From NCBI RefSeq assembly GCF_055900595.2, contig NZ_JBVWEU010000003.1: a DNA stretch of 64,000 bases. The stretch is one strand, 5' to 3'. The notes beneath the pieces are model-generated. The model searched no databases. It saw only the letters and a list, made by a program, of their open reading frames with translations, and had not been told where the DNA came from. Below are positions 15,935 through 33,409 of the stretch, piece by piece. This DNA comes from a plasmid. Position 1 is the stretch's first letter. Each line of letters starts with the position of its first letter. A program made the translations under genes and the position numbers.

Positions 15935-16015
15935 ATATTGAAGATAACAAGATAACAAGATAACAAGATAACAAGATAACAAGATAACAAGGTGTTATCT
16001 TGTTATCTCAAGGTG
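15935..16015. repeat. Iteron array: tandem 8-bp AAGATAAC units (about 6-7 copies) plus inverted GGTGTTATCTTGTTATC copies, downstream of the par operon
   Basis: Direct read of the sequence; a related array lies upstream at 17065-17120. Confidence 0.6.
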
Positions 16016-16318
16016 TTATCTTTGTTTTACTTCTGCTATCAATCGTGATACCTCTGTTTTTGATAGTGTTTTAAGTGCTTCTACCGCCGCCCTGACAACA
16101 TCAGAACGATTCACTCTGCCTTTACCTGAAACCATCTCAGCCGTTATAAGGGCATCAATGTCTTTTAGGTTTTCTTCAAAAAAAGAAATACTCACTGGTT
16201 TTGCTTTGCTTACAACCGATGATTTATCTGATGACTTTTTGGTATTATCAAGGCCAGCCGTGCCACCGTTAATAAATGCTGCCTCGTCACGAGGTGAAGT
16301 GTTTGCTCTATTTCTCAC
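16016..16318 (-). CDS. Small partition/centromere-binding protein (ParG/ParB-like, tentative)
   Basis: 100 aa, overlaps the parA stop; basic N-terminus; non-ATG (GTG) start per ORF track. Confidence 0.45.
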   Translation of the reverse strand: MRNRANTSPRDEAAFINGGTAGLDNTKKSSDKSSVVSKAKPVSISFFEENLKDIDALITAEMVSGKGRVNRSDVVRAAVEALKTLSKTEVSRLIAEVKQR

Positions 16319-16941
16319 AGAATAACCTCTTTCACTAACGCTTCGATTTCTTGCTGGGCTTTATCATTTTGCGTTTCAAAAATTGTCATTGATTCGGCCC
16401 AAGCATCTCGATGTGCTTTACGATCACATACCCGGGAGTTTGCCAGATGCATTTCAGGGTAATCCTTAAGTACTTCAGCTGCCTCATTGGCTTCATTAAC
16501 AAACATATTTGTGGGCGTCATGTTTAAAACGAGATATCCCCGAACATCCCCATTAAAATCTTTTGCTGCTGTAAAAACGGAGCATGTATGAGGCACAACA
16601 TCCAGGTCCATCTGAGATGGGCGCAAAGGAGAAATGAATACATCTGCGGCCATCAATCCACTACGCATTTCTGCGCTATCACGGCCAGCACAGTCTGCAA
16701 TAACAAAATCATAGGATTTTTCGTGTTCCTTTAACATGGCTTTGATGTTACCTGTCGCGCCTGTAACCGGAATATGAGGGAGATCTTCAGGGCGATTGTT
16801 GTACCAGGTTAATACTGATTTCTGGTCATCTGCGTCGACAATAATCACTCTATTGCCTAGTGACATCAGATACGCAGCTATAGATACCGCCAGTGTACTT
16901 TTACCTACCCCACCCTTTTGACTACCTAATACTATTATCAT
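16315..16941 (-). CDS. parA: ParA-family partition ATPase (type Ib)
   Basis: Deviant Walker A motif KGGVGKST at the N-terminus; 208 aa. Confidence 0.9.
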   Translation of the reverse strand: MIIVLGSQKGGVGKSTLAVSIAAYLMSLGNRVIIVDADDQKSVLTWYNNRPEDLPHIPVTGATGNIKAMLKEHEKSYDFVIADCAGRDSAEMRSGLMAADVFISPLRPSQMDLDVVPHTCSVFTAAKDFNGDVRGYLVLNMTPTNMFVNEANEAAEVLKDYPEMHLANSRVCDRKAHRDAWAESMTIFETQNDKAQQEIEALVKEVIL

Positions 16942-16949
16942 TATAGCCT

Positions 16950-17120
16950 CATATTAAGTTGTTAAGTTAACAACTTAATATTGCCATCTGAACGCGAATC
17001 ATGCAATTATTTTTGTTATATTAACAACTTAACAAGTTATTAAGTATTTGATTTATAGATTAATTAATATAACAAGATAACAAGACAACAAGATAACAAG
17101 ATAACAAGATAACAATATTA
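16950..17120. promoter_or_regulatory. par promoter/operator region with palindromes (AAGTTGTTAAGTTAACAACTTAA) and upstream AAGATAAC iterons
   Basis: Read from sequence immediately upstream of the parA start. Confidence 0.5.
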
Positions 17121-17136
17121 TGGGTGGATTACATAT

Positions 17137-18408
17137 TCATAACTGGGCTACTGGCAAATCTGTCCATCTGGTGGTATACGCAGGAGAAAGCATTTCCCGT
17201 TTCATTTGCCACTCAGGGGCGGTTCCTCGCCCCGCAAACCACACTTTCCCTTTTCCCGACTGGTTCAGTTCATCGAGTGTTTTCATTAACTTTTCACTGT
17301 TTTTACGGGGCTGGATTTCATCAAATAATCCCGGCTGCGCTATACCCGATGGTGTGAAATCAGCCAGCATGACTCCTGCCTTCATATAGCGGTACCCTTC
17401 ACGCCAGACATGGTTTAAGGCCCTGCATGCGGCGGCAATAATGTCCCGGCTGTCCTGTGTGGGCAATGAAAGCTTTTCCACAGCGGCATTGCTGTAACAG
17501 GGTTCTTTTACTGCAAAGGGGGATGTCCGTACAAATGTCGTCACCTGCCGGCAATACTGACGTTCCCCACGTAGTTTCTCTGCGGCCCGCTCTGCATACT
17601 GAACAACAGCCTGGTGCATGGCATCTTTGTCTGTGATTCGTTCACCAAAACTGCGACTACAGACAATCTGCTGTTTTGCCGGTGGTGCTTCTTCCAGGGA
17701 TATGCAGGACTCGCCGTTGAGTTCGCGTACCGTACGCTCAAGAATGACGCTGAAGTTTTTCCGGATGAATGCCGTGTTAGCCTGCGCCAGCTGCAGTGCT
17801 GTGTTAATACCCAGCGCATTCAGCTTTTCCGTCAGTCTGCGTCCTACTCCCCAGACCTCACCAACTGGCTGCAGCCCCAGTAGCTTCAAGATCCGATTAC
17901 GGTTTTCTGCCGTCAGCGCGACCACACCGGAAAACTGTGGCCATTGCTTTGTTGCCCACTGTGCACTTTTAGCCAGCGTTTTTGTAGGCGCAATGCCCAC
18001 CCCCATGGTGAGTCCTGTCCAGCTCTTTACCTGTTCCCTGAGCTGATGACCAAAAACCTCCGGAGAGATGCAATGATTTATCCCCCGCAAATCAATGAAC
18101 ATTTCATCAATTGAGTAGGGCTCAACTGCGGGAGAAAGCGACTCCAGAACAGCCATAACCCGTTGGCTCATGCTGTGGTACAGCGCATAATTGCTGGAAA
18201 ATACATGTATTTTCTTCTCCAGGCGCATCTGTCTCACCTGAAACCAGGGCTGCCCCATTCTGATGCCAAGGGCTTTTGCCTCCGGGCTGCGCGCGATCAC
18301 ACAGCCATCGTTATTGCTGAGTACGATGACCGGTTCGTTGCGAAGGTCCGGGCGGAAAACTTTTTCACATGAGGCGTAGAAACTGTTGATATCAGCCAGT
18401 GCAAACAT
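17137..18408 (-). CDS. impB: Y-family error-prone DNA polymerase subunit (UmuC/MucB/ImpB)
   Basis: 423 aa starting MFALADINSFYASCE…, the conserved Y-family polymerase N-terminus. Confidence 0.9.
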   Translation of the reverse strand: MFALADINSFYASCEKVFRPDLRNEPVIVLSNNDGCVIARSPEAKALGIRMGQPWFQVRQMRLEKKIHVFSSNYALYHSMSQRVMAVLESLSPAVEPYSIDEMFIDLRGINHCISPEVFGHQLREQVKSWTGLTMGVGIAPTKTLAKSAQWATKQWPQFSGVVALTAENRNRILKLLGLQPVGEVWGVGRRLTEKLNALGINTALQLAQANTAFIRKNFSVILERTVRELNGESCISLEEAPPAKQQIVCSRSFGERITDKDAMHQAVVQYAERAAEKLRGERQYCRQVTTFVRTSPFAVKEPCYSNAAVEKLSLPTQDSRDIIAAACRALNHVWREGYRYMKAGVMLADFTPSGIAQPGLFDEIQPRKNSEKLMKTLDELNQSGKGKVWFAGRGTAPEWQMKREMLSPAYTTRWTDLPVAQL

Positions 18409-18845
18409 CAGCGTAACTCCCGCGTCCTGTGTATCACGTGAGTGACAACACCAAAAATACAGATGTTTTCCGGATACAGTGTGCGGAACTCCGGGCTGTC
18501 TGAAACCGGCTCCAGTGCCGGGCGTGGGCGCAACAGCAGTCGTTTGACGGTGAACTCACCGTCGATCTCAGCGATAACGATGTCCCCGTGTTGTGGTTTT
18601 TCGGCCCTGTCCACTACCAGCAGATCACCATTCTGCACGCCAGCCTGGTTCATCGATTCACCGCTGGCGCGCAGAAAGAAGGTGGCTGCAGGTCTGCTGA
18701 TGCAATAGCTGTTCAGATCCAGTTCCTGCTCAGCATAATCAGTGGCAGGCGAAGGAAAACCGGCCTGGCAACGATCGGCAAACAACGGTCGCACGTAACT
18801 GTCATCGCCTGAAGGGTCAGCCGGACGGTGATAAACGGTACTCAT
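18408..18845 (-). CDS. impA: UmuD/MucA/ImpA-like LexA-type self-cleaving protein
   Basis: 145 aa with S24 peptidase-like signatures (GESMNQAG… and a downstream Lys); overlaps the impB start. Confidence 0.85.
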   Translation of the reverse strand: MSTVYHRPADPSGDDSYVRPLFADRCQAGFPSPATDYAEQELDLNSYCISRPAATFFLRASGESMNQAGVQNGDLLVVDRAEKPQHGDIVIAEIDGEFTVKRLLLRPRPALEPVSDSPEFRTLYPENICIFGVVTHVIHRTRELR

Positions 18846-19090
18846 GCTGCAGGCAGCCAGCTGTCGTCCTGCCAGATTTCTTCCAGCAGAGACAGGATAC
18901 GTTCTTTATCCTTGTCGTTGCGGGCTCCTGTGACAGATACAGACGGGGCGCTGCCCTGGTCTATACGCAGCCAGATTTCCGGGTAGTGTGGTTTCAGACG
19001 TTGTTCGATTTCATTCTGTAGCGCCTGAAGTGTGCCTGATTTGAGGTTTTTTGTGCTCTGGCGGTCGAAAAGAATTTCAATGCGGATCAT
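18842..19090 (-). CDS. impC: DinI-like protein (ImpC)
   Basis: MIRIEILFDRQ…LLEEIWQDDSW resembles DinI; start taken at the internal ATG; the longer ORF to 19150 begins with GTG. Confidence 0.65.
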   Translation of the reverse strand: MIRIEILFDRQSTKNLKSGTLQALQNEIEQRLKPHYPEIWLRIDQGSAPSVSVTGARNDKDKERILSLLEEIWQDDSWLPAA

Positions 19091-19113
19091 GTTCTCATCT
19101 CCCTTTTCTTTTG

Positions 19114-19129
19114 CTGTATGTATATACAG
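19114..19129. promoter_or_regulatory. LexA (SOS) box CTGTATGTATATACAG
   Basis: Perfect CTGT-N8-ACAG palindrome immediately upstream of impC. Confidence 0.7.
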
Positions 19130-19777
19130 TATTCTAATAACTGAATCCACACACAGTCAAATGTCATTATTGTGACTAAAAAACGCTCAATTCTCTGAGG
19201 GTGTGGCTGTATGCCTGCTGTGGACTGCTGTGTCCAGCTTATCCACAGCATTTTGCGCACGGTTCTGTGAATAAAATACCTGGTTACCCAGGCCGTGCCG
19301 GCACGTTAACCGGGCTGCATCCAATGCAAGTGTGTCGCTGTCGCCGGCATCCTCACCAGGTCACTCAGCAGTCAGGGAGAAAAATGGCGGATGAAGTATG
19401 ACGGAGACGGTCGGGCAAGTGCCCGTTTCTTTTCCGACAAAGGATGTCGCCGTGCTCCTCTTTTTACTGCGCCGGCTGACGCGGCGCGGCATAAACGCTG
19501 CCTGTGGTCAGTGTCCCGCGTCCGGCGGGCACGGGACGGGCGCTTTTACCGCTCCCGGCTGGCGTCGGTGACAGTGTACGCCAGCCCGTCGCCCTTTTCT
19601 GATGAACGCCCTTCAAGCCGCTTTCGCGGCATAGCCTTGCCGTCAGAAAGACGACGGCTGCGGTATTCCACGGTCGGCCTGACCCGTTACCGGACGCGGT
19701 GAACAGCCCACAGGCAGCGGGGAACGGGCACCACAGGGGTGCCCTCCCGGTGCCTTCTGTAAGAGAAGGAGGCTTTT

Positions 19778-20461
19778 ATGTCCCGTTTTATCCTGGGTGA
19801 CTGCGTGCGAGTTATGGCCACGTTTCCGGACAATGCTGTCGATTTCATCCTCACCGACCCGCCGTATCTCGTCGGTTTCCGTGACCGTTCCGGGCGCACC
19901 ATCGCCGGCGATAAAACCGACGAATGGCTGCAACCGGCCTGTAATGAGATGTACCGCGTGCTGAAAAAAGACGCGCTGATGGTGAGCTTCTATGGCTGGA
20001 ACCGCGTCGATCGCTTTATGTCTGCCTGGAAAAATGCGGGATTCAGCGTTGTTGGTCACCTGGTCTTCACCAAAAACTACACATCGAAGGCCGCATATGT
20101 GGGCTATCGCCACGAATGCGCCTACATCCTGGCAAAAGGCCGTCCACGTCTGCCACAAAACCCGCTGCCGGACGTGCTGGGCTGGAAATATTCAGGCAAT
20201 CGTCATCACCCGACGGAAAAGCCTGTTACCAGCCTGCAACCGCTGATTGAGAGCTTCACACACCCGAACGCAATTGTGCTGGACCCGTTTGCAGGCAGCG
20301 GCTCAACCTGCGTTGCCGCCCTCCAGTCCGGACGCCGGTATATCGGTATCGAGCTGCTTGAGCAGTATCACCGTGCCGGACAGCAACGACTGGCCGCCGT
20401 GCAACGGGCCATGCAGCAGGGGGCCGCGAATGATGACTGGTTTATGCCGGAGGCTGCGTAA
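19778..20461 (+). CDS. Orphan DNA N6-adenine/N4-cytosine methyltransferase
   Basis: DPPY catalytic motif near the N-terminus and a C-terminal FAGSGST SAM-binding motif; no adjacent restriction enzyme. Confidence 0.85.
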   Translation: MSRFILGDCVRVMATFPDNAVDFILTDPPYLVGFRDRSGRTIAGDKTDEWLQPACNEMYRVLKKDALMVSFYGWNRVDRFMSAWKNAGFSVVGHLVFTKNYTSKAAYVGYRHECAYILAKGRPRLPQNPLPDVLGWKYSGNRHHPTEKPVTSLQPLIESFTHPNAIVLDPFAGSGSTCVAALQSGRRYIGIELLEQYHRAGQQRLAAVQRAMQQGAANDDWFMPEAA

Positions 20462-20683
20462 ATGAACTATGCCGGACACGAAAAACTTCGCGCCGAAGTG
20501 GCGGAGGTGGCCAACACCATGTGTGACCTTCGGGCCAGGCTGAACGATATGGAGCATCGCTGTCGTTTTGATTCCGATGTGCTTGTTGAACGCCTGACAC
20601 GCCAGACGCTGTATCGCGCCAATCGCCTGTTTATGGAGGCGTATACCGAAATTCTTGAACTGGATGCGTGCTTCAAAGATTAA
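20462..20683 (+). CDS. Hypothetical protein (leading region)
   Basis: 73-aa ORF directly after the methylase stop; no family recognised. Confidence 0.4.
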   Translation: MNYAGHEKLRAEVAEVANTMCDLRARLNDMEHRCRFDSDVLVERLTRQTLYRANRLFMEAYTEILELDACFKD

Positions 20684-20695
20684 GGGGGAGACGAA

Positions 20696-21130
20696 ATGTA
20701 CGGAACATGCGAAACGCTGTGCCGGGAGCTGGCAGCGCAGTATCCGGGAGACACGCCGCTGATGCTGGTTGTCTGGTCCCCGGAAGAGATTCAGGCACTG
20801 GCTGACGGTATGGATATTTCTCTGACCGATCATGAAATCAGGACCGTCCTGTCGCGCCTGGAGGACATCCCGGAAGACCAGCGGAGTGAATCCGGTATTT
20901 CTTCCGGTGCGGCGATGGAGATCATCAATAACGTGAGAGAAAACCGCCAGGTGACCGTCCCTGCTGAACTGCTGGCGTCCCTGATTCAGACCGCCGAACA
21001 GGCACTGTGGAAACGTGAGTGGGCCGCCCGTGATAACGGCCTTGCCGTCCCGGAATGTGTTACCCGCCGTCAGGCAGTGATTAATCAGGCCCGCACCCTG
21101 CTGAAAAACAACACACACGAAAACAACTGA
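20696..21130 (+). CDS. Hypothetical protein (leading region)
   Basis: 144-aa acidic protein preceded by a GGGGAG Shine-Dalgarno-like sequence. Confidence 0.45.
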   Translation: MYGTCETLCRELAAQYPGDTPLMLVVWSPEEIQALADGMDISLTDHEIRTVLSRLEDIPEDQRSESGISSGAAMEIINNVRENRQVTVPAELLASLIQTAEQALWKREWAARDNGLAVPECVTRRQAVINQARTLLKNNTHENN

Positions 21131-21179
21131 TGTTATCGCCGCCTGCCCTGCGGGCGGCGATACAGGGAGACCATGAATC

Positions 21180-21950
21180 ATGAACGAAACGCTGAATGCA
21201 CTGGTTTGTCGTCACGCCCGTAACCTGCTGCTGGCGCAGGGCTGGCCGGAAGAGACGGATGTTGACCAGCGAAATCCGAACTATCCGGGCTGGATCAGCA
21301 TTTACGTGCGGCTGGATGCGCCCCGGCTGGCGACGTTACTTATCAACCGTCACGGCGGCGTACTGCCGCCGCTCCTGGCCTCTGCCATTCAGAGACTGAC
21401 CGGAACCGGGGCGGAACTGGTACTGTCCGGCAGTCAGTGGCAGTCGCTGCCGGTACTTCCGGCAGACGGAACGCAGGTGTCTTTCCCGTATGCCGGAGAA
21501 TGGCTGACCGAAGACGAAATCAGGGCTGTTCTTGATGCGGTGCACGATGCGGTACGAAGCATCTGTTACCAGGTGGCAGAAGATACGCGGCGTATCCGTG
21601 CGGCGCTGACCACCACCGGTCAGACGTTGCTGACCCGCCAGACGCGCCGCTTTCGCCTGGTCGTGAAGGAAAGCGATCATCCCTGCTGGCTCGATGAAGA
21701 TGACGAAAACCTGCCCGTAGTGCTCGATGCCATCGTGAACCGGGGCGCACGTTTTTCGGCAGTGGAAATGTATCTGGTCAGTGAGTGTGTGGAGCATATC
21801 CTGTCCAGTGGGCTGGCCTGCGATGTGCTGCGTATACCGGATGAACCGCCCCGCCGGTGGTTTGACCGTGGTGTTCTGCGGGAGGTGGTCCGGGAAGCCC
21901 GGGCCGAAATCCGCAGCATGGCGGATGCCCTGGCAAAAATCCGGAAATGA
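21180..21950 (+). CDS. Hypothetical protein (leading region)
   Basis: 256-aa ORF in the same-strand gene array; no family recognised. Confidence 0.45.
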
Positions 21951-22011
21951 TGACACTGGCGGGGTAAATCCCCGCCTTTTTCCTGCCGGTCCCCGGACAG
22001 AGCACAAAGGA

Positions 22012-22350
22012 AGTCGCCGCAGGCTCCGCTTTACCCGGCCATGCGGGGCATGGCCTTGTGGGTTTTCAGTTATGTGGCCTCAGCGTCGTGTGCGGGCTGT
22101 GCCGTGCCTCCATCGTAGCCGGGCTTCTGCGGGCGGGTTGCAAGGTAAGGTGAACCGCTGCGGTCACCCGGTCCCTCCTTCCCGTCTGCCGTGATTTTCC
22201 GGTCGTTCACCCGCTCAGATTTCGCGGTCTCACCCTCCAACTCCCGTCAGCCGTGTGCGTCAGGCTGCGGCTTCCCTTGCGCCCTTGCAACCCTGCAGGC
22301 CCGGCAAAGATGGAGGCACGGCACCGCCCGGTGTCGCGGAATATGTGAAC
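22012..22350. repeat. Leading-region structured repeat, family A, copy 1 (upstream of klcA)
   Basis: About 340 bp nearly identical to 28968-29306; GC-rich with multiple hairpins; the ORFs drawn across it are probably spurious. Confidence 0.7.
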
Positions 22351-22366
22351 AACGGAGGAAAACATC

Positions 22367-22792
22367 ATGCAATATGCGAAACCTGTCACTCTGAACGTTG
22401 AAGAGTGCGACCGTCTGTCTTTTCTGCCTTACCTGTTTGGCCTGGATTTTCTGTATGCCGAAGCGTCTGTATACGCGCTGGCGAAAAAAATGATGCCGGA
22501 ATATGAAGGCGGATTCTGGCACTTCATTCGCCTGCCGGACGGTGGCGGTTACATGATGCCGGATGGCGACCGTTTCCACATGGTGAACGGTGCAAACTGG
22601 TTTGACCGTACCGTGAGTGCTGATGCCGCAGGCATCATCCTTACCTCCCTTGTGATTAACCGCCAGTTGTGGCTGTACCACGACAGCGGGGATGCAGGGT
22701 TGACACACCTGTACAGGATGCGTGATGCGCAGTTGTGGAGCCACATCGAATTTCACCCCGAATGCAACGCGATTTACGCGGCACTTGACTGA
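22367..22792 (+). CDS. klcA: KlcA/ArdB-family anti-restriction protein
   Basis: 141 aa; LSFLPYLFG…GGFWHF…DGGGYMMPD…SADAAGII follows the KlcA/ArdB pattern. Confidence 0.8.
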
Positions 22793-22838
22793 TTAACGGA
22801 CGGGGCGGCAATGCCGCCCCTGTAAAGGAGACGAGAAC

Positions 22839-23261
22839 ATGTACTGTACTGTTAAAGAAATCATCCGCGATGTACTGGATACAGACGTGCCGGACAGTGA
22901 ATGCGTTTTTGCCGTGGTGCTGACCCGTGGGGATGTGCGTCACATAGCCCGGGACTGGAACCTGTCAGACGATGAGCTGGAAACCGTCATGCAGCGACTG
23001 GACGATGCCTTTGAGCATGGTGCGGATGTCAGCGTTGTTCACGACGTTGTTCGTGAACTGATGGAAGAAAAGCGCGCCAGCCGTCATGTGACAGTCCCGG
23101 CGGTGATGCTGGAAAAAGTGATGGCGCTGGCAGGCAGTGAAATGAAGCGCCTGTATGCCGTCGGGAGTGAGAACGGGGGCGACGGTGACGCATTCGTCAG
23201 GGAGGAACGCGAAGCAATGGACGTTGTGTTACAGGCGCTGGACGGGGAGACGATGTCATGA
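22839..23261 (+). CDS. Hypothetical acidic protein (leading region)
   Basis: 140-aa ORF preceded by AAAGGAGA Shine-Dalgarno-like sequence. Confidence 0.45.
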   Translation: MYCTVKEIIRDVLDTDVPDSECVFAVVLTRGDVRHIARDWNLSDDELETVMQRLDDAFEHGADVSVVHDVVRELMEEKRASRHVTVPAVMLEKVMALAGSEMKRLYAVGSENGGDGDAFVREEREAMDVVLQALDGETMS

Positions 23262-23449
23262 ATATCAGCACAGAAACTCGCGAAATTCTGCGTAATTACA
23301 GGGCCGTGATTAATGCGCGGCGTCGTGAAATGGGGCAGAAACCGCTCACCACCGCGCAGATTGTTGATGAAATCTGCGATTTTGTGGCGAATCAACAGGC
23401 GGTTTTCCTGGGCGGTCACTACATCTTACAGGGCAGCAGAAACAGGTGA
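23258..23449 (+). CDS. Hypothetical small protein
   Basis: 63-aa ORF overlapping the upstream stop (ATGA). Confidence 0.3.
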   Translation: MNISTETREILRNYRAVINARRREMGQKPLTTAQIVDEICDFVANQQAVFLGGHYILQGSRNR

Positions 23450-23652
23450 TACAGGGGCAGGCGGTGGAGGGCGCCTGTCAGCCCGCGCGAAAACCCCTGG
23501 CAGGCTGGCGCCTGCCGGAAACGCGGGGTGCAGCGCCTGCGGCGCTGCCGGCCCGGCTTTCCGGTCAGAAGGTAGTGTATGGCTGTATGCCAGGAACAGG
23601 TGTGATGTTCCGTGACACTGTCACCGTTTCTGGCTGTTTTTTGTTGCGCCCA

Positions 23653-24150
23653 CTTCGGCTCCCGGCTGCCTGACGGCATCCGGTCGTCAGGCCCGACTCC
23701 GACAGGCAGCTGCTGGCGCACCCGCCAGTCTCCGCCGAACCCGCTGGCGCGGTTTCGGGCTGTCGCTACGGTCCGATGCGTGAAAACCCGGGCTTGCAGC
23801 GACCGTTCCGGTCGCGCCGCCCCTGTCGCGCCGTGACCTGCGCTCCCTGCACACCTGACGGTGTGTGAGGAAACTGCGCCTGATGGCGCAGCAGTCCTCC
23901 CTCCTGCCGCCACCCCTGCGGCCTGTTTCCCGCTGTGGACTTTCCGGGGGGCAGACGTAACCCCCTCCCGTTCCATCTGTCCAGGGTGAGATGCACCGGC
24001 CACAAAATTTTTAGCCATGAACCCGGCAAAAAATTTTGCGTCCGCCCCCGGACAGCTGCCCCGTGAGGCGGTAAACGGGCCCCCATCGGAAAGGTCCACT
24101 GCGGGGAGAAACCCCTGTGAAGTGGACGGCAGGAGGAGCTTTCGCTCCTC
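23653..24150. repeat. Leading-region structured repeat, family B, copy 1 (upstream of ssb; single-strand-promoter-like)
   Basis: About 500 bp shared with 30005-30512 and, in part, 33030-33365; contains hairpins CACACCTGACGGTGTG and CTGCGCCTGATGGCGCAG. Confidence 0.65.
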
Positions 24151-24219
24151 TGAAGGGGCACATGAACGTCCCGTCGCCGGTATCCGGTTTATCTCACATC
24201 TTTCAGTCAGGAGGTTCTT

Positions 24220-24747
24220 ATGAGTGCACGTGGTATCAACAAGGTCATCCTCGTCGGGCGTCTGGGCAATGATCCGGAAGTCCGTTACATCCCCAACGGG
24301 GGTGCAGTGGCAAACCTGCAGGTGGCTACGTCAGAAAGCTGGCGCGACAAACAGACGGGGGAGATGCGGGAGCAGACGGAATGGCACCGCGTGGTGCTGT
24401 TCGGCAAGCTCGCGGAAGTGGCAGGTGAATATCTGCGCAAGGGCGCGCAGGTCTACATCGAGGGGCAACTCCGTACCCGTAGCTGGGAAGATAACGGTAT
24501 CACCCGTTACGTCACTGAAATTCTTGTTAAGACCACGGGCACCATGCAGATGCTGGGGAGTGCACCACAGCAGAACGCTCAGGCGCAACCGAAGCCTCAG
24601 CAGAATGGGCAGCCACAGAGTGCTGACGCGACGAAAAAAGGTGGCGCGAAAACGAAAGGCCGTGGACGTAAGGCCGCGCAGCCCGAGTCTCAGCCGCAAC
24701 CGCCGGAGGGGGAGGATTACGGGTTTTCAGACGATATCCCGTTCTGA
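24220..24747 (+). CDS. ssb: Plasmid single-stranded DNA-binding protein
   Basis: OB-fold N-terminus ([23 protein letters not shown]…), Gln/Pro-rich linker and acidic tail DDIPF. Confidence 0.95.
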
Positions 24748-24765
24748 CTGGCCTGACTGTGATAA

Positions 24766-25038
<273 letters not shown>

Positions 25039-25101
25039 GAGAGGTGCCGGACGGGAACGCGTCCGGCAGACATACAACCATCCCGGTCAAAGGAGAAATA
25101 T

Positions 25102-27060
25102 ATGTCAGTTACAGAGTCTAAGACAAAAACGGAGCGTAAATCCAGCCGTAAACCTGCAAAAACGCAGGAAACAGTCCTGTCTGCCCTGCTGGCGCAGACG
25201 GAGGAAGTGAGCGTGCCGCTGGCCTCACTGATTAAGTCACCGCTGAATGTGCGCACGGTGCCGTATTCTGCGGAGTCCGTCAGTGAACTGGCTGATTCCA
25301 TTAAGGGGGTCGGCCTGCTGCAGAATCTGGTTGTTCATGCCCTGCCAGGTGACCGCCACGGTGTCGCCGCAGGTGGTCGCCGACTGGCTGCACTCAATAT
25401 GCTGGCAGAGCGTGGCATCATTCCGGCGGACTGGCCTGTCCGCGTGAAGGTTATTCCGCAGGAACTGGCGACGGCGGCATCAATGACTGAAAACGGTCAT
25501 CGTCGGGATATGCACCCTGCTGAACAGATTGCCGGATTCCGCGCAATGGCGCAGGAAGGCAAAACACCTGCACAAATCGGTGATTTGCTGGGCTATTCAC
25601 CCCGCCATGTCCAGCGAATGCTGAAACTGGCTGACCTTGCGCCTGTCATCCTCGATGCGCTGGCAGAAGACCTCATCACCACCGAGCACTGTCAGGCGCT
25701 GGCGCTGGAGAACGACACCGCTCGTCAGGTGCAGGTGTTTGAAGCCGCCTGTCAGTCAGGATGGGGCGGTAAACCGGAAGTGCAGACCATTCGTCGTCTG
25801 GTGACCGAAAGTGAAGTGGCGGTGGCGGGGAACAGTAAATTCCGCTTCGTGGGGGCTGATGCCTTCTCGCCAGATGAACTGCGCACCGATTTGTTCAGCG
25901 ATGACGGGGACGGTTATGTCGACCGCGTGGCGCTCGATGCCGCCCTGCTGGAAAAACTCCAGGCTGTCGCTGAACACCTTCGGGAAGCCGAAGGCTGGGA
26001 ATGGTGCGCCGGACGTATGGAGCCTGTCGGTTTCTGCCGTGAGGATGCCGGAACATACCGCAGTCTGCCGGAGCCGGAAGCTGTGCTGACGGAGGCGGAA
26101 GAAGAACGCCTGAACGAACTGATGGCACGTTACGACGCGCTGGAAAATCAGTGTGAGGAATCCGACCTGCTGGAAGCAGAAATGAAGCTGATGCGCTGCA
26201 TGGCGAAGGTCAGGGCGTGGACGCCGGAGATGCGTGCCGGAAGTGGCGTGGTGGTGTCCTGGCGTTATGGAAACGTATGTGTCCAGCGTGGTGTGCAGTT
26301 GCGCAGTGAGGATGACGTGGCTGACGACGCTGGCCGCACGGAACAGGTGCAGGAGAAAGCCTCCGTGGAGGGAATCAGTCTGCCGCTGCTGACGAAAATG
26401 TCTTCCGAACGCACGCTGGCAGTCCAGGCGGCACTGATGCAGCAGCCGGACAAATCCCTGGCACTGCTGGCATGGACGCTCTGCCTGAATGTGTTTGGCA
26501 GCGGAGCGTACAGTAAACCAGCACAAATCAGCCTGGAATGTAAACATTATTCGCTGACCAGCGATGCGCCATCGGGGAAGGAAGGTGCCGCGTTCATGGC
26601 GATGATGGCAGAAAAAGCCCGTCTTGCGGCCCTGTTACCGGGGGGATGGTCACGGGACATGACGACGTTCCTTTCACTCAGTCAGGAGGTGCTGTTATCC
26701 CTGCTCAGTTTCTGCACCGCGTGCAGCATCCACGGCGTTCAGACCCGCGAGTGTGGTCACACGCCACGCAGCCCGCTGGACACGCTGGAGAGCGCCATCG
26801 GTTTTCACATGCGCGACTGGTGGCAGCCGACAAAAGCAAACTTCTTCGGACACCTGAAAAAGCCGCAGATTATCGCAGCCCTGAATGAGGCAGGACTGTC
26901 CGGTGCCGCACGGGACGCGGAGAAGATGAAGAAAGGCGATGCGGCTGAACATGCAGAGTTCCATATGAAAGACAACCGCTGGGTGCCTGGCTGGATGTGT
27001 GCACCACGTCCACAGACGGATACCACTGAACGCACTGATAACCTGGCTGATGCCGCCTGA
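25102..27060 (+). CDS. ParB-like nuclease-domain protein (large leading-region protein)
   Basis: 652 aa; N-terminal ParB/Srx-like motif (LQNLVVHALPGDRHGVAAGGRRLAA) followed by HTH-like segments. Confidence 0.75.
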   Translation: MSVTESKTKTERKSSRKPAKTQETVLSALLAQTEEVSVPLASLIKSPLNVRTVPYSAESVSELADSIKGVGLLQNLVVHALPGDRHGVAAGGRRLAALNMLAERGIIPADWPVRVKVIPQELATAASMTENGHRRDMHPAEQIAGFRAMAQEGKTPAQIGDLLGYSPRHVQRMLKLADLAPVILDALAEDLITTEHCQALALENDTARQVQVFEAACQSGWGGKPEVQTIRRLVTESEVAVAGNSKFRFVGADAFSPDELRTDLFSDDGDGYVDRVALDAALLEKLQAVAEHLREAEGWEWCAGRMEPVGFCREDAGTYRSLPEPEAVLTEAEEERLNELMARYDALENQCEESDLLEAEMKLMRCMAKVRAWTPEMRAGSGVVVSWRYGNVCVQRGVQLRSEDDVADDAGRTEQVQEKASVEGISLPLLTKMSSERTLAVQAALMQQPDKSLALLAWTLCLNVFGSGAYSKPAQISLECKHYSLTSDAPSGKEGAAFMAMMAEKARLAALLPGGWSRDMTTFLSLSQEVLLSLLSFCTACSIHGVQTRECGHTPRSPLDTLESAIGFHMRDWWQPTKANFFGHLKKPQIIAALNEAGLSGAARDAEKMKKGDAAEHAEFHMKDNRWVPGWMCAPRPQTDTTERTDNLADAA

Positions 27061-27114
27061 TGAACAACCACACCGCCCCGCCGGAGACGGGGCGGCAGCA
27101 AGGGAGATACCGTG

Positions 27115-27549
27115 ATGAAAACTGAACTGACCCTGAATGTATTACAGACCATGAGTGCACAGGAATATGAAGATATCCGTGCTGCGGGAAGCGATATGCG
27201 CCGTAATCTCACTCACGAGGTGATGCGTGAAGTGGACGCACCGGCTAACTGGATGATGAATGGCGAGTATGGCAGTGAGTTCGGGGGCTTTTTCCCCGTC
27301 CAGGTTCGTTTCACGCCAGCCCACGAACGTTTCCACCTGGTATTATGTTCGCCGGGAGAAGTCTCTCAGCTCTGGATGCTGGTTCTGGTGAATGGTGGTG
27401 GACAGCCTTTCGCCGTCGTTCAGGTGCAACATATCTTCACGCCTGTCGCGATCAGTCACACGCTGGCGCTCGCCGCGACACTTGATGCGCAGGGATACAG
27501 TGTTAACGACATCATTCATATTTTGATGGCAGAAGGAGGTCAGGCATGA
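27115..27549 (+). CDS. psiB: Plasmid SOS-inhibition protein PsiB
   Basis: [26 protein letters not shown]… matches PsiB; ATG follows the track's GTG by one codon. Confidence 0.9.
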
Positions 27550-28265
27550 GCGCACGTTCACGGGCACTGATCCCCCTCAGCGCAGAACAACAGGCCGCCA
27601 TGCAGGCTGTGGCTGTCACCGAACAACGTCGTCGTCAGGGACGCACACTTTCAGCATGGCCTTATGCCAGCGCTTTCTTTCGCTGCCTGAATGGCAGTCG
27701 CCGGATTTCGCTGACCGATCTCCGCTTTTTTGCTCCTGCGCTGACGAAGGAGGAATTTCATGGCAACCGTCTCCTGTGGCTGGCTGCCGTGGATAAACTG
27801 ATTGAAAGTTTTGGTGAAGTCTGTGTTCTTCCCCTGCCATCCGATGCGGGGCACCGTCTGTTCCCGTCCGTTCCTTTTCGTGAAGGTGAGCGTCGTCGTC
27901 AGAAAACCACGCTGACAGAGCAGAAATACAGCCGCCAGCGGGAACGTGAGGCAGAACGACGGGAACTGGAATACCAGACATGTTTTGCTCAGGCGCAGAT
28001 TGACCTTGCGTTTCATACTCCCTCCACGGTCGGAAGCTGGTTGTCCCGCTGGTCTGGTGTTGTTGAGGAGCATGATCTGGAAACGATTTTCTGGGGGTGG
28101 TGCGGGCGTTTTCCGTCACTGTCATCATTTGACCGTTTTTTCTGGCAGGAGGAACCACTCTGGCGGCTGATTTTTGAAGCCGGTGAGGCCGGTCGTGGTG
28201 CACCGGTACAGGTACGTGCACTTGAGCAGTGGATGATCCCGAACAAGCTGGAGAACGTAATATGA
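27546..28265 (+). CDS. psiA: Plasmid SOS-inhibition protein PsiA
   Basis: 239 aa immediately after psiB with a 4-bp overlap; the canonical psiB-psiA pair. Confidence 0.85.
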
Positions 28266-28858
28266 TGAAATCAGACGAAAAATACCAGGTTCCCGCGTGG
28301 ATGCGACCTCTGTTGCCGTTGCTCTGCAACACCGGGGAGAACGATCCGGAAGAACTGCTGAATGATACAGAAACCACTGCCAGTGCGAATGTTGTCCGTT
28401 ATGTACTGATAGTTGCAGTGCGGTCGCAGGTTGATCTGCTGCAGCTTCTGTACAGGAAAGGGCTGTTGCGCACAGAGATACCAGGTGGCTTTTCACCGGA
28501 AGAAGCGCAGGAACTCCTGGATAATCTGGTGCGCAGCCATATCAGCAGGGCGCTGTCGGGTGAGCGAATGGCAGCCCGTGACAGGAATGCCGATCTGGCC
28601 TGGATTCGACAGCAACTGGTCGATGCCGCCTGGTTTGTCCGTGCCACACTGGAAGCGCATGGGATGAGCGTCGGAAATGAGAGTCCCCCTGCTCAGCCGG
28701 AGACAATGCCGGACATACAGACACGGGAACTGGTGATGTTGATCAAGCGACTGGCATCATCGCTGAAAGCGGTGAAACCGGACAGTTGTGTGGTGCGTGA
28801 AGCGCAGGACTGGCTGCGCGACAGAAAACTTGTGAGCATCACGGATGTTCTTCGGTGA
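28262..28858 (+). CDS. Hypothetical protein (leading region)
   Basis: ORF starting at the ATG (MMKSDEKYQ…) that overlaps the psiA stop. Confidence 0.4.
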   Translation: MMKSDEKYQVPAWMRPLLPLLCNTGENDPEELLNDTETTASANVVRYVLIVAVRSQVDLLQLLYRKGLLRTEIPGGFSPEEAQELLDNLVRSHISRALSGERMAARDRNADLAWIRQQLVDAAWFVRATLEAHGMSVGNESPPAQPETMPDIQTRELVMLIKRLASSLKAVKPDSCVVREAQDWLRDRKLVSITDVLR

Positions 28859-28967
28859 ACCAGTGGAGGTATGCTTGAGGGGCAGGGACATGCCGGTCAT
28901 GATCGTTTCGTTCCAGGGGTGGTCTGGAGATCATGCGGCGTGTCCTCTGCACTCGCCGGAATAAGGA

Positions 28968-29306
28968 CGTCGCCGCCGGCTCCGCTTTTACCCGGCCATG
29001 CGGGGCATGGCCTTGTGGGTTTTCAGTTATGTGGCCGCCGTGTCGTGTGCGGGCTGTGCCGTGCCTCCATCGTAGCCGGGCTTCTGCGGGCGGGATGCAA
29101 GGTAAGATGAACCGCTGCGGTCACCCGGTCCCTCCTTCCCGTCTGCCGTGATTTTCCGGTCGTTCACCCGCTCAGATTTCGCGGTCTCACCCTCCAACTC
29201 CCGTCAGCCGTGCGCGTCGGGCTGCGGCTTTCCTTGCGCCCTTGCATCCCTGCAGGCCCGGCAAAGATGGAGGCACGGCACCGCCCGGTGTCGCAGAACA
29301 TGTGAC
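28968..29306. repeat. Leading-region structured repeat, family A, copy 2 (upstream of ardA)
   Basis: Near-identical to 22012-22350. Confidence 0.7.
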
Positions 29307-29322
29307 TATGGAGGATTCGGGA

Positions 29323-29823
29323 ATGTCTGTTGTTGCACCTGCTGTATACGTTGGAACCTGGCACAAATATAACTGCGGAAGCATCGCCGGCCGCTGGTTT
29401 GACCTGACCACGTTTGATGATGAACGCGATTTTTTCGCCGCCTGCCGTGCCCTTCACCAGGATGAAACCGATCCGGAACTGATGTTTCAGGATTATGAGG
29501 GTTTCCCGGGGAATATGGCCTCTGAATGTCATATCAACTGGGCCTGGGTTGAAGGCTTCCGCCGGGCACGGGATGAAGGCTGCGAAGAGGCTTATCGTCT
29601 CTGGGTGGATGATACCGGTGAGACGGATTTTGACAGCTTCCGCGATGCCTGGTGGGGCGAGGCTGACAGTGAGGAGGCTTTTGCGGTTGAGTTCGTCAGT
29701 GATACCGGCCTGCTGGCTGACGTGCCGGAGACGGTGGCGCTCTATTTTGACTATGAGGCGTATGCGCGGGATTTATTCCTGGACTCCTTCACCTTTATTG
29801 ACGGTCATGTGTTCCGTCGGTGA
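29323..29823 (+). CDS. ardA: ArdA anti-restriction protein (DNA mimic)
   Basis: MSVVAPAVYVGTWHKYNCGSIAGRWFDL…DYEAYARDLFLDSFTFIDGHVFRR matches ArdA; start taken at the internal ATG. Confidence 0.9.
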   Translation: MSVVAPAVYVGTWHKYNCGSIAGRWFDLTTFDDERDFFAACRALHQDETDPELMFQDYEGFPGNMASECHINWAWVEGFRRARDEGCEEAYRLWVDDTGETDFDSFRDAWWGEADSEEAFAVEFVSDTGLLADVPETVALYFDYEAYARDLFLDSFTFIDGHVFRR

Positions 29824-30004
29824 TTTACTCCCCCGCTCCGGCGGGGGTATGGCCTGCCGGGCCGCCGGAAAACCCTGGCAGGCTTACGCCTGCCTGAAAT
29901 GCAGGAGGGCCGCGCCTGCGGCGCTGCCCTTCCTGCCCGTCATGGTGTGAGGCATTTTTCTGTTATGTCGTTTCTGTTGTTCTGATTTCCGGAGGCGGGG
30001 ACAC

Positions 30005-30512
30005 CCTTCGGCTCCCGGCTGCCTGGCGGCATCCGGTCGTCAGGCCCGACTCCGACAGGCAGCTGCTGGCGCACCCGCCAGTCTCCGCCGAACCCGCTGG
30101 CGCGGTTTCGGGCTGCCGCTACGGTCCGATGTCTGAAAAACCAGGCCTGCAGCGACCGTTCCGGTCGCGCCGCCCCTGTCGCGCCGGAAACGGCGCTCCC
30201 TGCACACCTGACGGTGTGTAAGGCCACTGCGCCTGATGGCGCAGTTGTCTGCCCTTCCGCCGCCACCCCTGCGGCCTGTTTCCCGCTGTGGACTTTCCGG
30301 GGGCTGAAGCGGCCACAACACGTTTCAGCCGTCCAGGGGAGAGATGTACCAGCCACAAAACTTTTTGCCGCAGGCGTCAAAAACTTTTGCGTCTGCCCCC
30401 GGACAACTGCCCCGTGCCGTGGCAGTCGCTGCCCCATCGGAAAGGTCCACTGCGGGGAGAAACCCCGAAGAAGTGGACGGCAGAAGGGGCTTTCGCCCCT
30501 CCGGGGAATAAC
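30005..30512. repeat. Leading-region structured repeat, family B, copy 2
   Basis: Shares the hairpin-rich sequence with copy 1; immediately precedes the ORF at 30555. Confidence 0.65.
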
Positions 30513-30554
30513 CGGTCGGCCCGGCGACCTGATTCAGCAGAAGGAGACGTTTTC

Positions 30555-30989
30555 ATGACAGTCAGCAGCACGATTTCCGTTTTTTGCCGAGACGGGGTGT
30601 TCCGTACCGTTTACTGCCACCTGCACGGTGAGCCGACCTGGAACGGTCGCATCCTGCATACCCACTATGCCACCGGTCAGCTGGCCGAAGCCCTGGTTGA
30701 ACACGGAGATATCCGTTGCCTCGGTCCCCGTTGCGACAAACCCGCCGGGCATACGCTTCAGAACCCGGTGGACGGTGTGACGGCTTATTACGGACGTGAC
30801 AGTGGTTTCCGGATGGACAGTGAAGCGCGTGAGTACCGCTCTTTCAGGGAGGCTATTGCCACTGAAAGCACAGAAGAGGTGCGCTTCCATTATGTGTTCA
30901 TCGACGGCTACTGGAAGGTGATGTACCGCACGCCGGAAGGCTGGAAGATGAAAGCGCTCGCGCTGGCACTGCGTCGCTGTCCGGAATGA
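30555..30989 (+). CDS. Hypothetical protein downstream of a family-B repeat
   Basis: 144 aa; AGGAGA Shine-Dalgarno sequence before the ATG; same position relative to the repeat as ssb. Confidence 0.5.
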   Translation: MTVSSTISVFCRDGVFRTVYCHLHGEPTWNGRILHTHYATGQLAEALVEHGDIRCLGPRCDKPAGHTLQNPVDGVTAYYGRDSGFRMDSEAREYRSFREAIATESTEEVRFHYVFIDGYWKVMYRTPEGWKMKALALALRRCPE

Positions 30990-31081
30990 AAAAAAGCAGG
31001 GCGATAAACCCTGCCTTTCTCCGCCGGCGCTTCCCCGTACGGAAGTCCGGCATCTCATTCACTAACTATGGAGATTATGCT

Positions 31082-31348
31082 ATGAGGCCATCAATTATCT
31101 TCGCAACCGCCGAGTATGTAAAGCGTCTGCGTGAAGAGTGCCGGCGGGAGAACAAACCCCTGCACCGCCATACCCGCTTCAGACGCCAGGAACTGGCACC
31201 GGATGAGATTAACCCGGACGTCCTGGCGATGGGCGGTCATATCGCCAGACGCTGCAGTGAGCGGAAGCGGGTGCGTATCCCCGCCATGAAAGTCAGCGAA
31301 TGGGGCCACCTGCTCCGCGCGCTTGAAATTGAGCGGGTCTGCCACTGA
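31082..31348 (+). CDS. Hypothetical basic small protein
   Basis: 88 aa starting MRPSIIF after a GGAG Shine-Dalgarno-like sequence. Confidence 0.35.
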   Translation: MRPSIIFATAEYVKRLREECRRENKPLHRHTRFRRQELAPDEINPDVLAMGGHIARRCSERKRVRIPAMKVSEWGHLLRALEIERVCH

Positions 31349-31412
31349 TTAACCCTTGCCGTCTGCCTGTGCAGGCGGCAGGATACGTTCAGACATCTCA
31401 CCAGGAGGAACC

Positions 31413-32330
31413 GTGAGTAAGAAGAAAACCACCACGACGCCCACGCCGCATGATGCCGCGTTCCGGTCGTTCCTGGCGAACCCCGACGTCGCCAGAGATT
31501 TTCTGGAACTGCATCTTCCGGCGGAGTACCGGCAGTTGTGCGACCTGTCCACGCTGAAGCTGGAACCCGCCACCTTTGTTGAGCCGGACCTGCATCAGTA
31601 CGCCAGCGATATCCTCTGGAGTGTGAAAACCACCGGGGGTGAAGACGGCTATATTTATACGCTCATCGAGCACCAGAGCACCGAAAATCTGTACATGCCT
31701 TTCCGCATGTTACGTTACAGTGTGGCGGCGATGCAGAGACATCTGGAGCAGCACAAAACATTGCCACTGGTGATTCCGGTGCTGTTCTATCATGGTGAGC
31801 GCAGCCCGTACCCGTACAGCATGAACTGGCTGGACTGTTTTGAGGATCCGGCACTTGCGGCTAAAATATACACAAAGCCGTTTCCGCTGGTTGATATCAC
31901 TGTCGTTGATGACAATGAAATCATGAACCATCGCCGGATGGCCGCACTGACGCTGCTGATGAAGCATATCCGTCAGCGGGATATGCTGATGTGTCTGGAC
32001 AACCTGGTCAGGGCACTGCAGGACATCCAGGATGAAGAGCAGATTACAGTTCTTTTCAACTATCTGCTTAATGGCAGCGAACATGTAACGGTTAAATTTT
32101 TGCAGACGCTGGCGCAGCGACTGCCGCAGCACGAGGACAGCATTATGACACTGGCAGAACGTCTTAAGCAGGAAGGAATACAGCAGGGAATACAGCAGGG
32201 AATACAGAAAGGCCGCATGGAGGAGAAGCTGGATATTGCGCGTCAGCTTCAGAAAACGGGAATGTCATTTGCACAAATCTGTCAGATCACCGGACTTTCT
32301 GAAGCCGAACTGAAAAAAATCGCCCACTGA
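31413..32330 (+). CDS. Rpn-family (YhgA-like) recombination-promoting nuclease
   Basis: GTG start 7 bp after AGGAGG; N-terminal HDAAFRSFLANPDVARDFLELHLP and YTLIEHQST motifs typical of Rpn proteins; C-terminal QQGIQQGIQQGIQKG tail. Confidence 0.7.
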   Translation: MSKKKTTTTPTPHDAAFRSFLANPDVARDFLELHLPAEYRQLCDLSTLKLEPATFVEPDLHQYASDILWSVKTTGGEDGYIYTLIEHQSTENLYMPFRMLRYSVAAMQRHLEQHKTLPLVIPVLFYHGERSPYPYSMNWLDCFEDPALAAKIYTKPFPLVDITVVDDNEIMNHRRMAALTLLMKHIRQRDMLMCLDNLVRALQDIQDEEQITVLFNYLLNGSEHVTVKFLQTLAQRLPQHEDSIMTLAERLKQEGIQQGIQQGIQKGRMEEKLDIARQLQKTGMSFAQICQITGLSEAELKKIAH

Positions 32331-32342
32331 GTAAACATCACA

Positions 32343-32368
32343 GCCCGGCAAAATGCCGGGCTTTTTTG
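32343..32368 (+). terminator. Rho-independent terminator after the Rpn gene
   Basis: GCCCGGCAAAATGCCGGGC hairpin followed by TTTTTT. Confidence 0.6.
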
Positions 32369-32394
32369 TCAGCAGGAGCAGAGCAAACAGCATG

Positions 32395-32550: not shown

Positions 32551-32580
32551 CCTGGCATTCTGCCAGGCTGTGAATCACGC

Positions 32581-32832: not shown

Positions 32833-32844
32833 AAAACACCTTTG

Positions 32845-33365: not shown

Positions 33366-33409
33366 AAATGACCTGGCTGACCCGGCAGTCGTGACGATGA
33401 GGAGACAAT

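Follow-up and report, generated by a model that had tools for sequence, protein, structure and literature searches.

The region at positions 19,778 to 21,950 of the window (the whole 64,000-nucleotide stretch of plasmid contig NZ_JBVWEU010000003.1, assembly GCF_055900595.2, that was analysed) contains four plus-strand genes, which encode an orphan beta-class N6-adenine DNA methyltransferase of 227 aa (19778..20461), a 73-aa protein (20462..20683), a DUF1380 protein of 144 aa (20696..21130), and a YchA-family protein of 256 aa (21180..21950). The plasmid has an IncI-complex, IncK2/Z-like backbone and is not IncI1; its impCAB-to-oriT stretch is collinear with that of pESBL-EA11, and oriT is placed at ~34.7-34.9 kb by collinearity with loci L001 and L003. 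The block lies ~15 kb from oriT and reads toward it; it is the last unit of its orientation, ahead of impCAB, which points the other way. An earlier note on this DNA had described four plus-strand ORFs at the distal end of the leading region; all four are present in the ORF list and the placement is borne out. The methylase is on the same strand as ssb, psiB, psiA, and ardA, with the transferred strand as template, and its neighbours are impCAB, the three small non-nuclease ORFs, and klcA.

The methylase aligns to Pfam PF01555 N6_N4_Mtase (residues 21-201, E 2e-40), NCBIfam NF010253 (499.7 bits, cut-off 244), and PADLOC MTase_II PDLC03228 (E 2.6e-142), and among solved structures its best relatives are CcrM, RsrI, and DpnA. 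The catalytic DPPY occupies residues 27-30 (TDPPYLV, 25-31) and the SAM-binding FAGSGS residues 170-175 (DPFAGSGST, 168-176), the DPPY-first arrangement being the beta-class order, and AGGAGG lies 6 nt 5' of the ATG. The protein is an orthologue of M.EcoGIX, of YfbB of R64, and of YfeA of F, and is 92.1% identical over 227 aa to the pESBL M.EcoGIX (54782-55465 in Table 2 of PMC4288162; 4883-5566 of L003), to which YfeA and YfbB are 91% and 94% identical, respectively, as reported in the literature. No endonuclease linked to the methylase was found among the neighbouring genes, the 256-aa protein being modelled without a nuclease fold, and the locus thus lacks the linked endonuclease of the same specificity that marks a Type II restriction-modification system. 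Full-length homology, motif order, the absence of a linked endonuclease, and a leading region templated by the transferred strand are all as in the M.EcoGIX / M.BceJIII family, and on these sequence grounds the gene should be annotated as M.EcoGIX-type.

The three ORFs that follow are real genes and not chance ORFs. All have full-length PHROG family matches, are under purifying selection (dN/dS 0.10-0.38), and occur in a conserved order in about 25 loci of Enterobacterales, and each of the four genes has its own Shine-Dalgarno sequence. The companions were previously called same-strand and uncharacterised, and that description stands: searches of PDB, Pfam, NCBIfam, and PADLOC returned no functional label, no enzymatic domain, and no informative match to solved folds for any of them; a literature search for DUF1380 turned up no study of its function, and one by old gene names found the pESBL table alone (PMC4288162). 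Their products have a pI of 4.7-5.6.

The 73-aa protein (Hp9 of pESBL) matches phrog_4830 over its full length (E 1.3e-36). Its ATG abuts the methylase stop codon (TAAATG), which suggests translational coupling of the two genes, and it lies 0-6 nt 3' of the methylase in about 26 loci. Its dN/dS is 0.10-0.19, its identity falls to 34-42% in loci whose methylase remains at 88-91%, and the allele in the window comes from another lineage than that of pESBL (dS 1.0 vs 0.15-0.4 in neighbouring genes). The DUF1380 protein (Hp10) is acidic (pI 4.7) and all-helical and matches PF07128 with an E-value of 1.9e-53 and 180.6 bits, above the Pfam gathering cut-off of 26; a paralogue encoded in the klcA operon that comes next (22839-23261) aligns along its length at 21.1 bits, under the cut-off. 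The 256-aa protein (Hp11/YchA) consists of two alpha/beta halves in a confidently predicted fold without a solved relative, with an invariant E164 and conserved arginines, and an exhaustive HMMER search placed it in a small family of 180 representatives that is unlinked to any named family. The companions diverge much faster than the methylase and their presence is modular: locus L024 has the methylase and the DUF1380 gene without the 73-aa ORF, and L012, L029, and the Burkholderiales relatives are without all three.

The gaps between the four genes are 0, 12, and 49 nt. A perfect 10-bp inverted repeat, ATCGCCGCCC..GGGCGGCGAT, lies between the DUF1380 gene and the fourth gene (21135..21162, plus strand) and is not followed by a T-run. 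The top-listed terminator-like site of the region, and the single strong one, comes after the fourth gene (21958..21985, plus strand), where GGCGGGGTAAATCCCCGCC, with seven G-C pairs, is followed by TTTTTCC. The next unit begins with a different promoter repeat (22007-22359), and no sigma-70-like promoter was found on the plus strand of 19000-24300. A single transcription unit of four genes is supported by this anatomy, and the suggestion of the earlier note that the three ORFs share an entry programme with the methylase agrees with the packing and with the single terminator.

Upstream of the methylase, the minus strand, which is the transferred and template strand, contains a 224-nt three-way-junction hairpin at 19496..19719. 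Its outer stem pairs 19683-19719 with 19496-19535, and arms A and B span 19613-19682 and 19538-19611, respectively. The DNA fold of 19340-19790 on this strand has a free energy of -118.5 kcal/mol (z -6.3), and none of 100 shuffled sequences folded as well. Across 13 distinct homologues, pairing is kept in 98.2% of cells; compensatory changes occur at 11 pairs, whereas shuffles gave 5.7+/-1.1 (0/500) and slid controls gave 0-3. The covariation comes mostly from two sequence groups and therefore represents few independent events. The wobble cells comprise 62 G.T on the minus strand vs 5 A.C, and the fold is therefore better preserved on the T-strand. The hairpin is thus an unusually stable structure maintained by selection on the transferred strand. 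Methylase loci without upstream sequence similarity still have a long hairpin at the corresponding spot, and Rfam holds no family matching the region. A scan for -35/-10 boxes found no site in the hairpin with at least 9 of 12 matches, and a relaxed scan gave a single candidate, TACACT / TAAAAT, which is weak and lies close to the arm B tip. A small 5-bp hairpin (19728..19742), with compensatory change in three of its five pairs across homologues, stands between the large one and the ribosome-binding site of the methylase.

The same segment contains a plus-strand ORF of 103 aa (19391..19702), which is annotated in L001 and pESBL and is a RefSeq 'hypothetical protein'. Because it overlaps the hairpin, it is probably not a gene. 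Its product would have a pI of 11.7 and 26 K+R, it matches no family among the NCBIfam and PHROG profiles, its codon differences from pESBL are one synonymous and four non-synonymous, and its frame is broken in L012 though the DNA is conserved there.

The M.EcoGIX operon of the IncI1 plasmid pESBL-EA11 (NC_018659.1, 54.4-57.0 kb) consists of a class 3 ssDNA promoter, M.EcoGIX, Hp9, Hp10, and Hp11/YchA, and the window matches it in gene order, spacing, and orientation toward oriT. The methylase, DUF1380, and YchA-like proteins are each 92% identical to their pESBL counterparts and the 73-aa protein 80%, and the region upstream of the methylase is 97% identical over 398 nt. The flanks are also alike, with impCAB upstream and, downstream, a klcA operon that has a promoter repeat of its own; pESBL has in addition a DUF1281 gene (Hp8) between impC and the hairpin, which the window lacks. 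In pESBL the start site at the class 3 promoter 5' of M.EcoGIX was confirmed by 5' RACE, which together with RNA-seq showed that the M.EcoGIX operon, one of six zygotically induced operons reported, is induced in transconjugants from this ssDNA promoter (PMC12672017). Transconjugants likewise show induction of the F operon, and F is reported to have a conserved class 3 promoter (PMC12672017). We consider it probable, at roughly 0.85, that the block represents, in the window, the M.EcoGIX operon known from IncI/IncF-type plasmids and that the published mechanism carries over; all function given here is transferred from pESBL and F, and the segment upstream of the methylase should, by analogy, be read as a structured promoter, the counterpart of the pESBL class 3 element. 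The published wording 'operon', together with the gene anatomy, supports a place for the three ORFs in the induced transcript, and they should be annotated as zygotically co-expressed genes.

M.EcoGIX is an orphan m6A methylase that is single-strand-specific and acts in SAY context, as known from SMRT sequencing and oligonucleotide assays (PMC7736820). Its deletion is harmless to the donor, which means that it has no cognate nuclease, and reduces transfer into EcoRI or EcoGIII recipients up to 1000-fold (PMC4288162). By TnSeq, neither the methylase nor any of the three ORFs is required for transfer when the recipient is a permissive K-12 strain (PMC4288162). Protection is abolished by inversion of oriT (PMC7736820). 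With no nuclease among the neighbours and a 92.1%-identical enzyme published as protecting transfer, both the absence of a partner restriction enzyme and the protective self-methylation on entry proposed in the earlier note are supported; the finding is correct yet already known, the unit having been studied before. A methylome free of any motif, which the earlier note would take as a refutation, is the expected result and refutes nothing, because M.EcoGIX is reported to be silent in laboratory culture of its native host and its SAY signal to be degenerate, strand-specific, and ~40% occupied (PMC7736820).

We infer that the window copy behaves identically to its published orthologue. During conjugation the minus strand of the window would enter the recipient 5'-first from oriT (~34.8 kb) and template every leading-region gene. 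Before synthesis of the complementary strand, 19496-19719 would fold into the long branched hairpin, which host RNA polymerase would use as a promoter, and the transcript would span the methylase, the 73-aa ORF, and the DUF1380 and YchA-like genes and end at 21958-21985. The methylase would mark the entering single strand with m6A at degenerate SAY sites, and second-strand synthesis would leave many restriction sites hemimethylated and therefore spared from cleavage. In double-stranded DNA the hairpin could no longer form, and the unit would fall silent.

Another role for the hairpin, mainly as a single-strand priming signal for the complementary strand or as an RNA leader, with the genes expressed otherwise, is improbable, and the two functions are not mutually exclusive. 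Frpo-type elements are described as making primer RNA plus mRNA (PMC12672017, citing earlier work), no good -35/-10 match was found in the hairpin, and covariation alone cannot tell DNA from RNA, but the excess of G.T over A.C cells favours the minus strand, not the mRNA strand, and the 5' RACE start site coincides with the predicted ssDNA promoter of pESBL (PMC12672017), in a region 97% identical here. The class 3 element also recurs in other plasmids, where it precedes other, unrelated leading-region cargo, and the scan of 19000-24300 detected no alternative plus-strand promoter. In the reading as a promoter the hairpin resembles the class 1 elements Frpo and ssi1-3, which are likewise long, on the transferred strand, and just 5' of same-strand leading genes, and which are active only before second-strand synthesis, as the window hairpin would be. 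It differs in that it is predicted to be branched, whereas class 1 elements form a single stem, and in that no consensus-like boxes were found in it. The class 1 copies in the window (23653-24150, 30006-30501, and 33034-33365) match one another and not 19496-19719.

For the companions, the somewhat less improbable, though still unlikely, alternative is that they, or at least the coupled 73-aa protein, are accessory subunits that hold the methylase on the incoming strand or at the replication machinery, with part of the protection depending on them. The start of the 73-aa ORF immediately after the methylase stop, and its company with the methylase in so many loci, fit such a role, as does the report that M.EcoGIX, once purified, was active only as a fusion to PolI, so that a partner may be needed in the native setting; the authors of that work suspected an intermediary protein (PMC7736820). 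Moreover, neither the gentamicin-cassette replacement that produced the pESBL knockout nor the oriT inversion separates the methylase from the co-transcribed ORFs. Against this, by itself the cloned methylase gene produces SAY methylation in E. coli, and mutation of its DPPY motif to APPA is the published catalytic mutant (PMC7736820); since the cloned gene suffices, the companions are not needed for catalysis. The loci that carry the methylase without the 73-aa ORF or without all three companions also speak against it, and the disparity in identity between the 73-aa protein and the methylase is unlike what is seen for co-evolving subunits. A cryptic restriction-modification system, with one companion, most plausibly the 256-aa protein, as the nuclease, was rejected and is close to refuted: restriction enzymes are often unrecognisable by sequence and the protein has the invariant E164 and conserved arginines, but its model shows no nuclease fold and the deletion in pESBL is harmless (PMC4288162).

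Rather than methylase subunits, the companions are by our best guess proteins without enzymatic activity that bind host proteins, serve establishment or anti-defence, and are made in the same early burst. That at least one of them is a new anti-defence or establishment factor active in the first minutes after entry is a tentative proposal, with the odds somewhat against it. Because the cassette knockout and the oriT inversions also remove the early expression of the companions, part of the restriction evasion now credited to M.EcoGIX alone could then stem from them. The unit is one of few leading-region functions directly shown to widen the range of enterable hosts, and it is found on thousands of resistance plasmids of the IncI, IncF, IncK, and IncB/O groups; at 90% identity or above it has matches in more than 5000 PLSDB records.

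M.BceJIII of Burkholderia cenocepacia pBCA072 belongs to the same methylase family and has the same published single-strand SAY activity (PMC7736820). Loci in Achromobacter, Bordetella, and Paraburkholderia encode methylases 60-67% identical, with klcA/ArdB-like genes nearby, and the Burkholderiales relatives have neither the companion ORFs nor a homologue of the class 3 hairpin. Phage orphan methyltransferases likewise provide self-protection of an invader by a nuclease-less methylase, but the phage enzymes act on dsDNA at defined sites, whereas members of the M.EcoGIX family, as published, act on single strands in a degenerate context, incompletely, and only on entry.

The ORF listing bears out the earlier note's claim of four consecutive plus-strand genes: a DNA methyltransferase of 227 aa (19778-20461), a 73-aa ORF (20462-20683), a DUF1380 protein of 144 aa (20696-21130; Pfam, E 1.9e-53) and a 256-aa YchA-like ORF (21180-21950). 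The 227-aa protein matches PF01555 (Pfam, E 2e-40), NF010253 (NCBIfam, 499.7 bits; cut-off 244) and the PADLOC Type II methyltransferase model (E 2.6e-142), carries its motifs in the order DPPY (residues 27-30) then FAGSGS (170-175), and has CcrM, RsrI, and DpnA as its nearest solved relatives. The 73-aa and 256-aa proteins each match, over their full length, a PHROG family without known function, and no Pfam, NCBIfam or PADLOC model matched either. Identity to the proteins of plasmid pESBL is 92.1% (methylase), 79.5% (73-aa), 91.7% (DUF1380) and 92.2% (256-aa).

Stretch 19300-22400 has matches of 90% identity or more in over 5000 plasmid records, chiefly of conjugative plasmids from Escherichia, Klebsiella and Salmonella. 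IncK2/Z plasmids are among the best matches, with pHN7DS11 99.8% identical over 15941-24258, and the IncI1 plasmid pESBL-EA11 is collinear with the window from 15941 to 34909. The shared gene order runs from the oppositely oriented impB, impA and impC through the block to klcA/ardB, a second DUF1380 gene and a small ORF, followed by ssb, DUF905, a ParB-like gene, psiB and psiA, then ardA, more small ORFs, oriT (at about 34.7-34.9 kb in the window) and nikA. The leading-region genes all point to oriT and so have the transferred strand as template; this order and orientation put the block at the end of the leading region farthest from oriT, as had been proposed. pESBL and the majority of other matches have a 309-aa DUF1281 gene separating impC from the block's upstream hairpin; the window and the IncK2/Z plasmids lack it (junction at window 19364/19384 versus 3453-4487 of the pESBL-EA11 record), reflecting either a deletion here or an insertion there.

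The block is a known, experimentally studied system found in thousands of plasmids. In pESBL the orthologous methylase is M.EcoGIX (54782-55465), and the next three genes are Hp9, Hp10, and Hp11/YchA (Table 2 of PMC4288162); YfbB of R64 and YfeA of F are 94% and 91% identical to it, respectively (PMC7736820). M.EcoGIX produces m6A in the degenerate context SAY on single strands only, marks one strand at about 40% of sites in vivo, and is silent in the native host in culture (PMC7736820). Its deletion leaves plasmid stability and host growth unchanged, and without it transfer drops up to 1000-fold into EcoRI or EcoGIII recipients and about 9-fold into a Klebsiella strain (PMC4288162). Protection is lost when oriT is inverted, so M.EcoGIX must be produced in the recipient from the entering strand. 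RNA-seq of early pESBL transconjugants found six leading-region operons strongly induced, one of which is transcribed from a "class 3" hairpin, a new kind of single-strand promoter located 5' of M.EcoGIX, whose start was confirmed by 5' RACE; the M.EcoGIX operon is likewise induced in F (PMC12672017). Orphan methylases are among the most prominent functions in a leading-region survey (PMC11541004). This work on a 92.1% identical orthologue supports the view that the window methylase is an orphan enzyme giving protective methylation on entry. In a standard host methylome, no motif would be expected for it.

The minus strand at 19340-19790, upstream of the methylase, has a predicted fold of -118.5 kcal/mol (z -6.3), with a conserved core at 19496-19719 in which an outer stem and two arms meet at a three-way junction. 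This region is 97% identical to that upstream of M.EcoGIX in pESBL, and ten further Enterobacterales loci show 74-83% identity. Across 13 distinct aligned sequences, 98.2% of cells are paired, and compensatory double changes occur at 11 pairs. Column shuffles give 5.7±1.1 such pairs (none of 500 gets to 11), and sliding the partners by 1-3 columns gives 0-3. The compensatory changes stem mostly from two sequence groups and thus reflect few independent events. Wobbles number 62 G·T cells on the minus strand versus 5 A·C cells, which would be plus-strand wobbles; pairing in the fold thus holds for 98.2% of cells as transferred strand and for 92.5% as mRNA-sense strand. The upstream "hypothetical protein" is here newly re-read, by covariation and strand asymmetry, as a probable structured single-strand promoter. 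That 103-aa plus-strand ORF (19391-19702; RefSeq WP_072643653.1 / WP_001310011.1) overlaps the conserved hairpin, encodes an arginine-rich product of pI 11.7, differs from pESBL by four non-synonymous and one synonymous codon changes, and has lost its reading frame in one homologous comparison locus (L012). It is probably not a gene but a spurious call repeated across thousands of plasmid records.

Further copies of the class 3 hairpin precede other leading-region genes: they occur before DUF1281 in loci L017 (3041-3239) and L022 (631-716 and 3046-3243), before two unrelated small ORFs in L012 (3559-3755), and in L026/L028 (4205-4333). Locus L008 has a methylase without upstream sequence similarity, yet a long hairpin (z -4.1) at the same spot. 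Because the element recurs before other cargo, and because L008 has a hairpin without sequence similarity, these loci support a portable promoter module. A search of the hairpin for -35 and -10 boxes gave no convincing placement.

The four genes are one transcription unit. The methylase stop abuts the start of the 73-aa ORF (TAAATG), later intergenic gaps are 12 nt and then 49 nt, each gene is preceded by a Shine-Dalgarno sequence, and the block's sole strong terminator, GGCGGGGTAAATCCCCGCC then TTTTT, lies 8 nt past the fourth stop; that the unit is bounded by its terminator is new here. No sigma-70-like promoter was found on the plus strand of 19000-24300, which fits the reported silence of the methylase gene in double-stranded form. 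Between the DUF1380 and 256-aa genes, 21135-21162 holds a perfect inverted repeat of 10 bp that lacks a T-run and might serve in RNA processing or stability. Directly after the terminator lies the first of two copies of a 350-nt direct repeat (22007-22359 and 28963-29315), upstream of klcA/ardB and ardA, respectively, with 97% identity across a 300-nt core (22030-22329 versus 28987-29286); the copies match published class 2 ssDNA promoters. Three Frpo/ssi-like (class 1) repeats lie upstream of ssb (23653-24150) and before small-ORF operons closer to oriT (30006-30501 and 33034-33365). In pHN7DS11 a group II intron (ltrA; 24960-27620 of its record) sits just upstream of ssb beside the Frpo-like repeat, and the window lacks it at 24258/24259.

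The three companions are real genes, with dN/dS against five relatives of 0.10-0.19 (73-aa), 0.20-0.38 (DUF1380) and 0.18-0.33 (256-aa), compared with 0.09-0.12 for the methylase and 0.05-0.12 for klcA. Across one-genome-per-species contigs, the order methylase, 73-aa ORF, DUF1380, 256-aa ORF is kept in most Enterobacterales loci recovered. The companions diverge much faster than the methylase: where the latter is 84-91% identical, they are 34-86%, 29-59% and 38-60% identical. This difference in pace, with the methylase conserved and its three companions moving fast, is new here. The 256-aa gene is absent from six loci (L009, L011, L015, L019, L023 and L030), the first four of which have an ardA-like gene in its place; L024 lacks the 73-aa gene; L012, L029 and the Burkholderiales relatives lack all three companions; and extra DUF1380 copies occur in L020 and L022, and a paralogue lies in the window's klcA operon. 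The window's 73-aa allele is mosaic relative to pESBL (dS 1.0 versus 0.15-0.4 for its neighbours), being 97% identical to the alleles of L005, L007 and L043 while flanking genes are about 92% identical to pESBL, which suggests allelic exchange within the operon.

In pESBL, TnSeq scored neither the methylase nor any of its three companions as needed for transfer into a permissive K-12 recipient (PMC4288162). The companions are small proteins, ranging from mildly to strongly acidic (pI 4.7-5.6), in which no catalytic signature was found. Being also fast-evolving, modular and presumably expressed only in the entry burst, they most likely bind host factors, like other leading-region anti-defence proteins. 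Alternatively, they may assist the methylase: the 73-aa start directly abuts its stop, purified M.EcoGIX is reported inactive unless fused to PolI (PMC7736820), and the four genes cannot be told apart in either the cassette-replacement knockout or the oriT inversion. However, the methylase cloned alone works in E. coli (PMC7736820) and is retained without companion ORFs at some loci, and host-factor binding is preferred.

In assemblies assigned to Collinsella, Oscillibacter, Oscillospiraceae and Streptomyces morookaense, six loci (L004, L005, L013, L025, L031 and L043) carry this enterobacterial plasmid region with a methylase 89-99% identical, most likely through contamination or mis-binning of public genomes. 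In Achromobacter and Bordetella relatives (L032, L034 and L038, about 3100-5650), the methylase has a klcA-like gene some 1.5 kb upstream, preceded in L032 and L034 by a protein of around 314 aa that bears HsdM-like motifs (FFTP, EPACGAGG). The L034 methylase is followed by an overlapping ORF of 84 aa that by eye has no obvious similarity to the window's 73-aa ORF. Rfam gives the window a single match, to AgrB, the antisense RNA of a DinQ-type toxin locus (43098-43187, minus strand; 50.4 bits, gathering score 40), consistent with the DinQ-like toxin annotated in pESBL. Window 4000-9000 has a low GC content (0.32-0.37 versus about 0.55 elsewhere) and strong positive GC skew and is probably acquired cargo.
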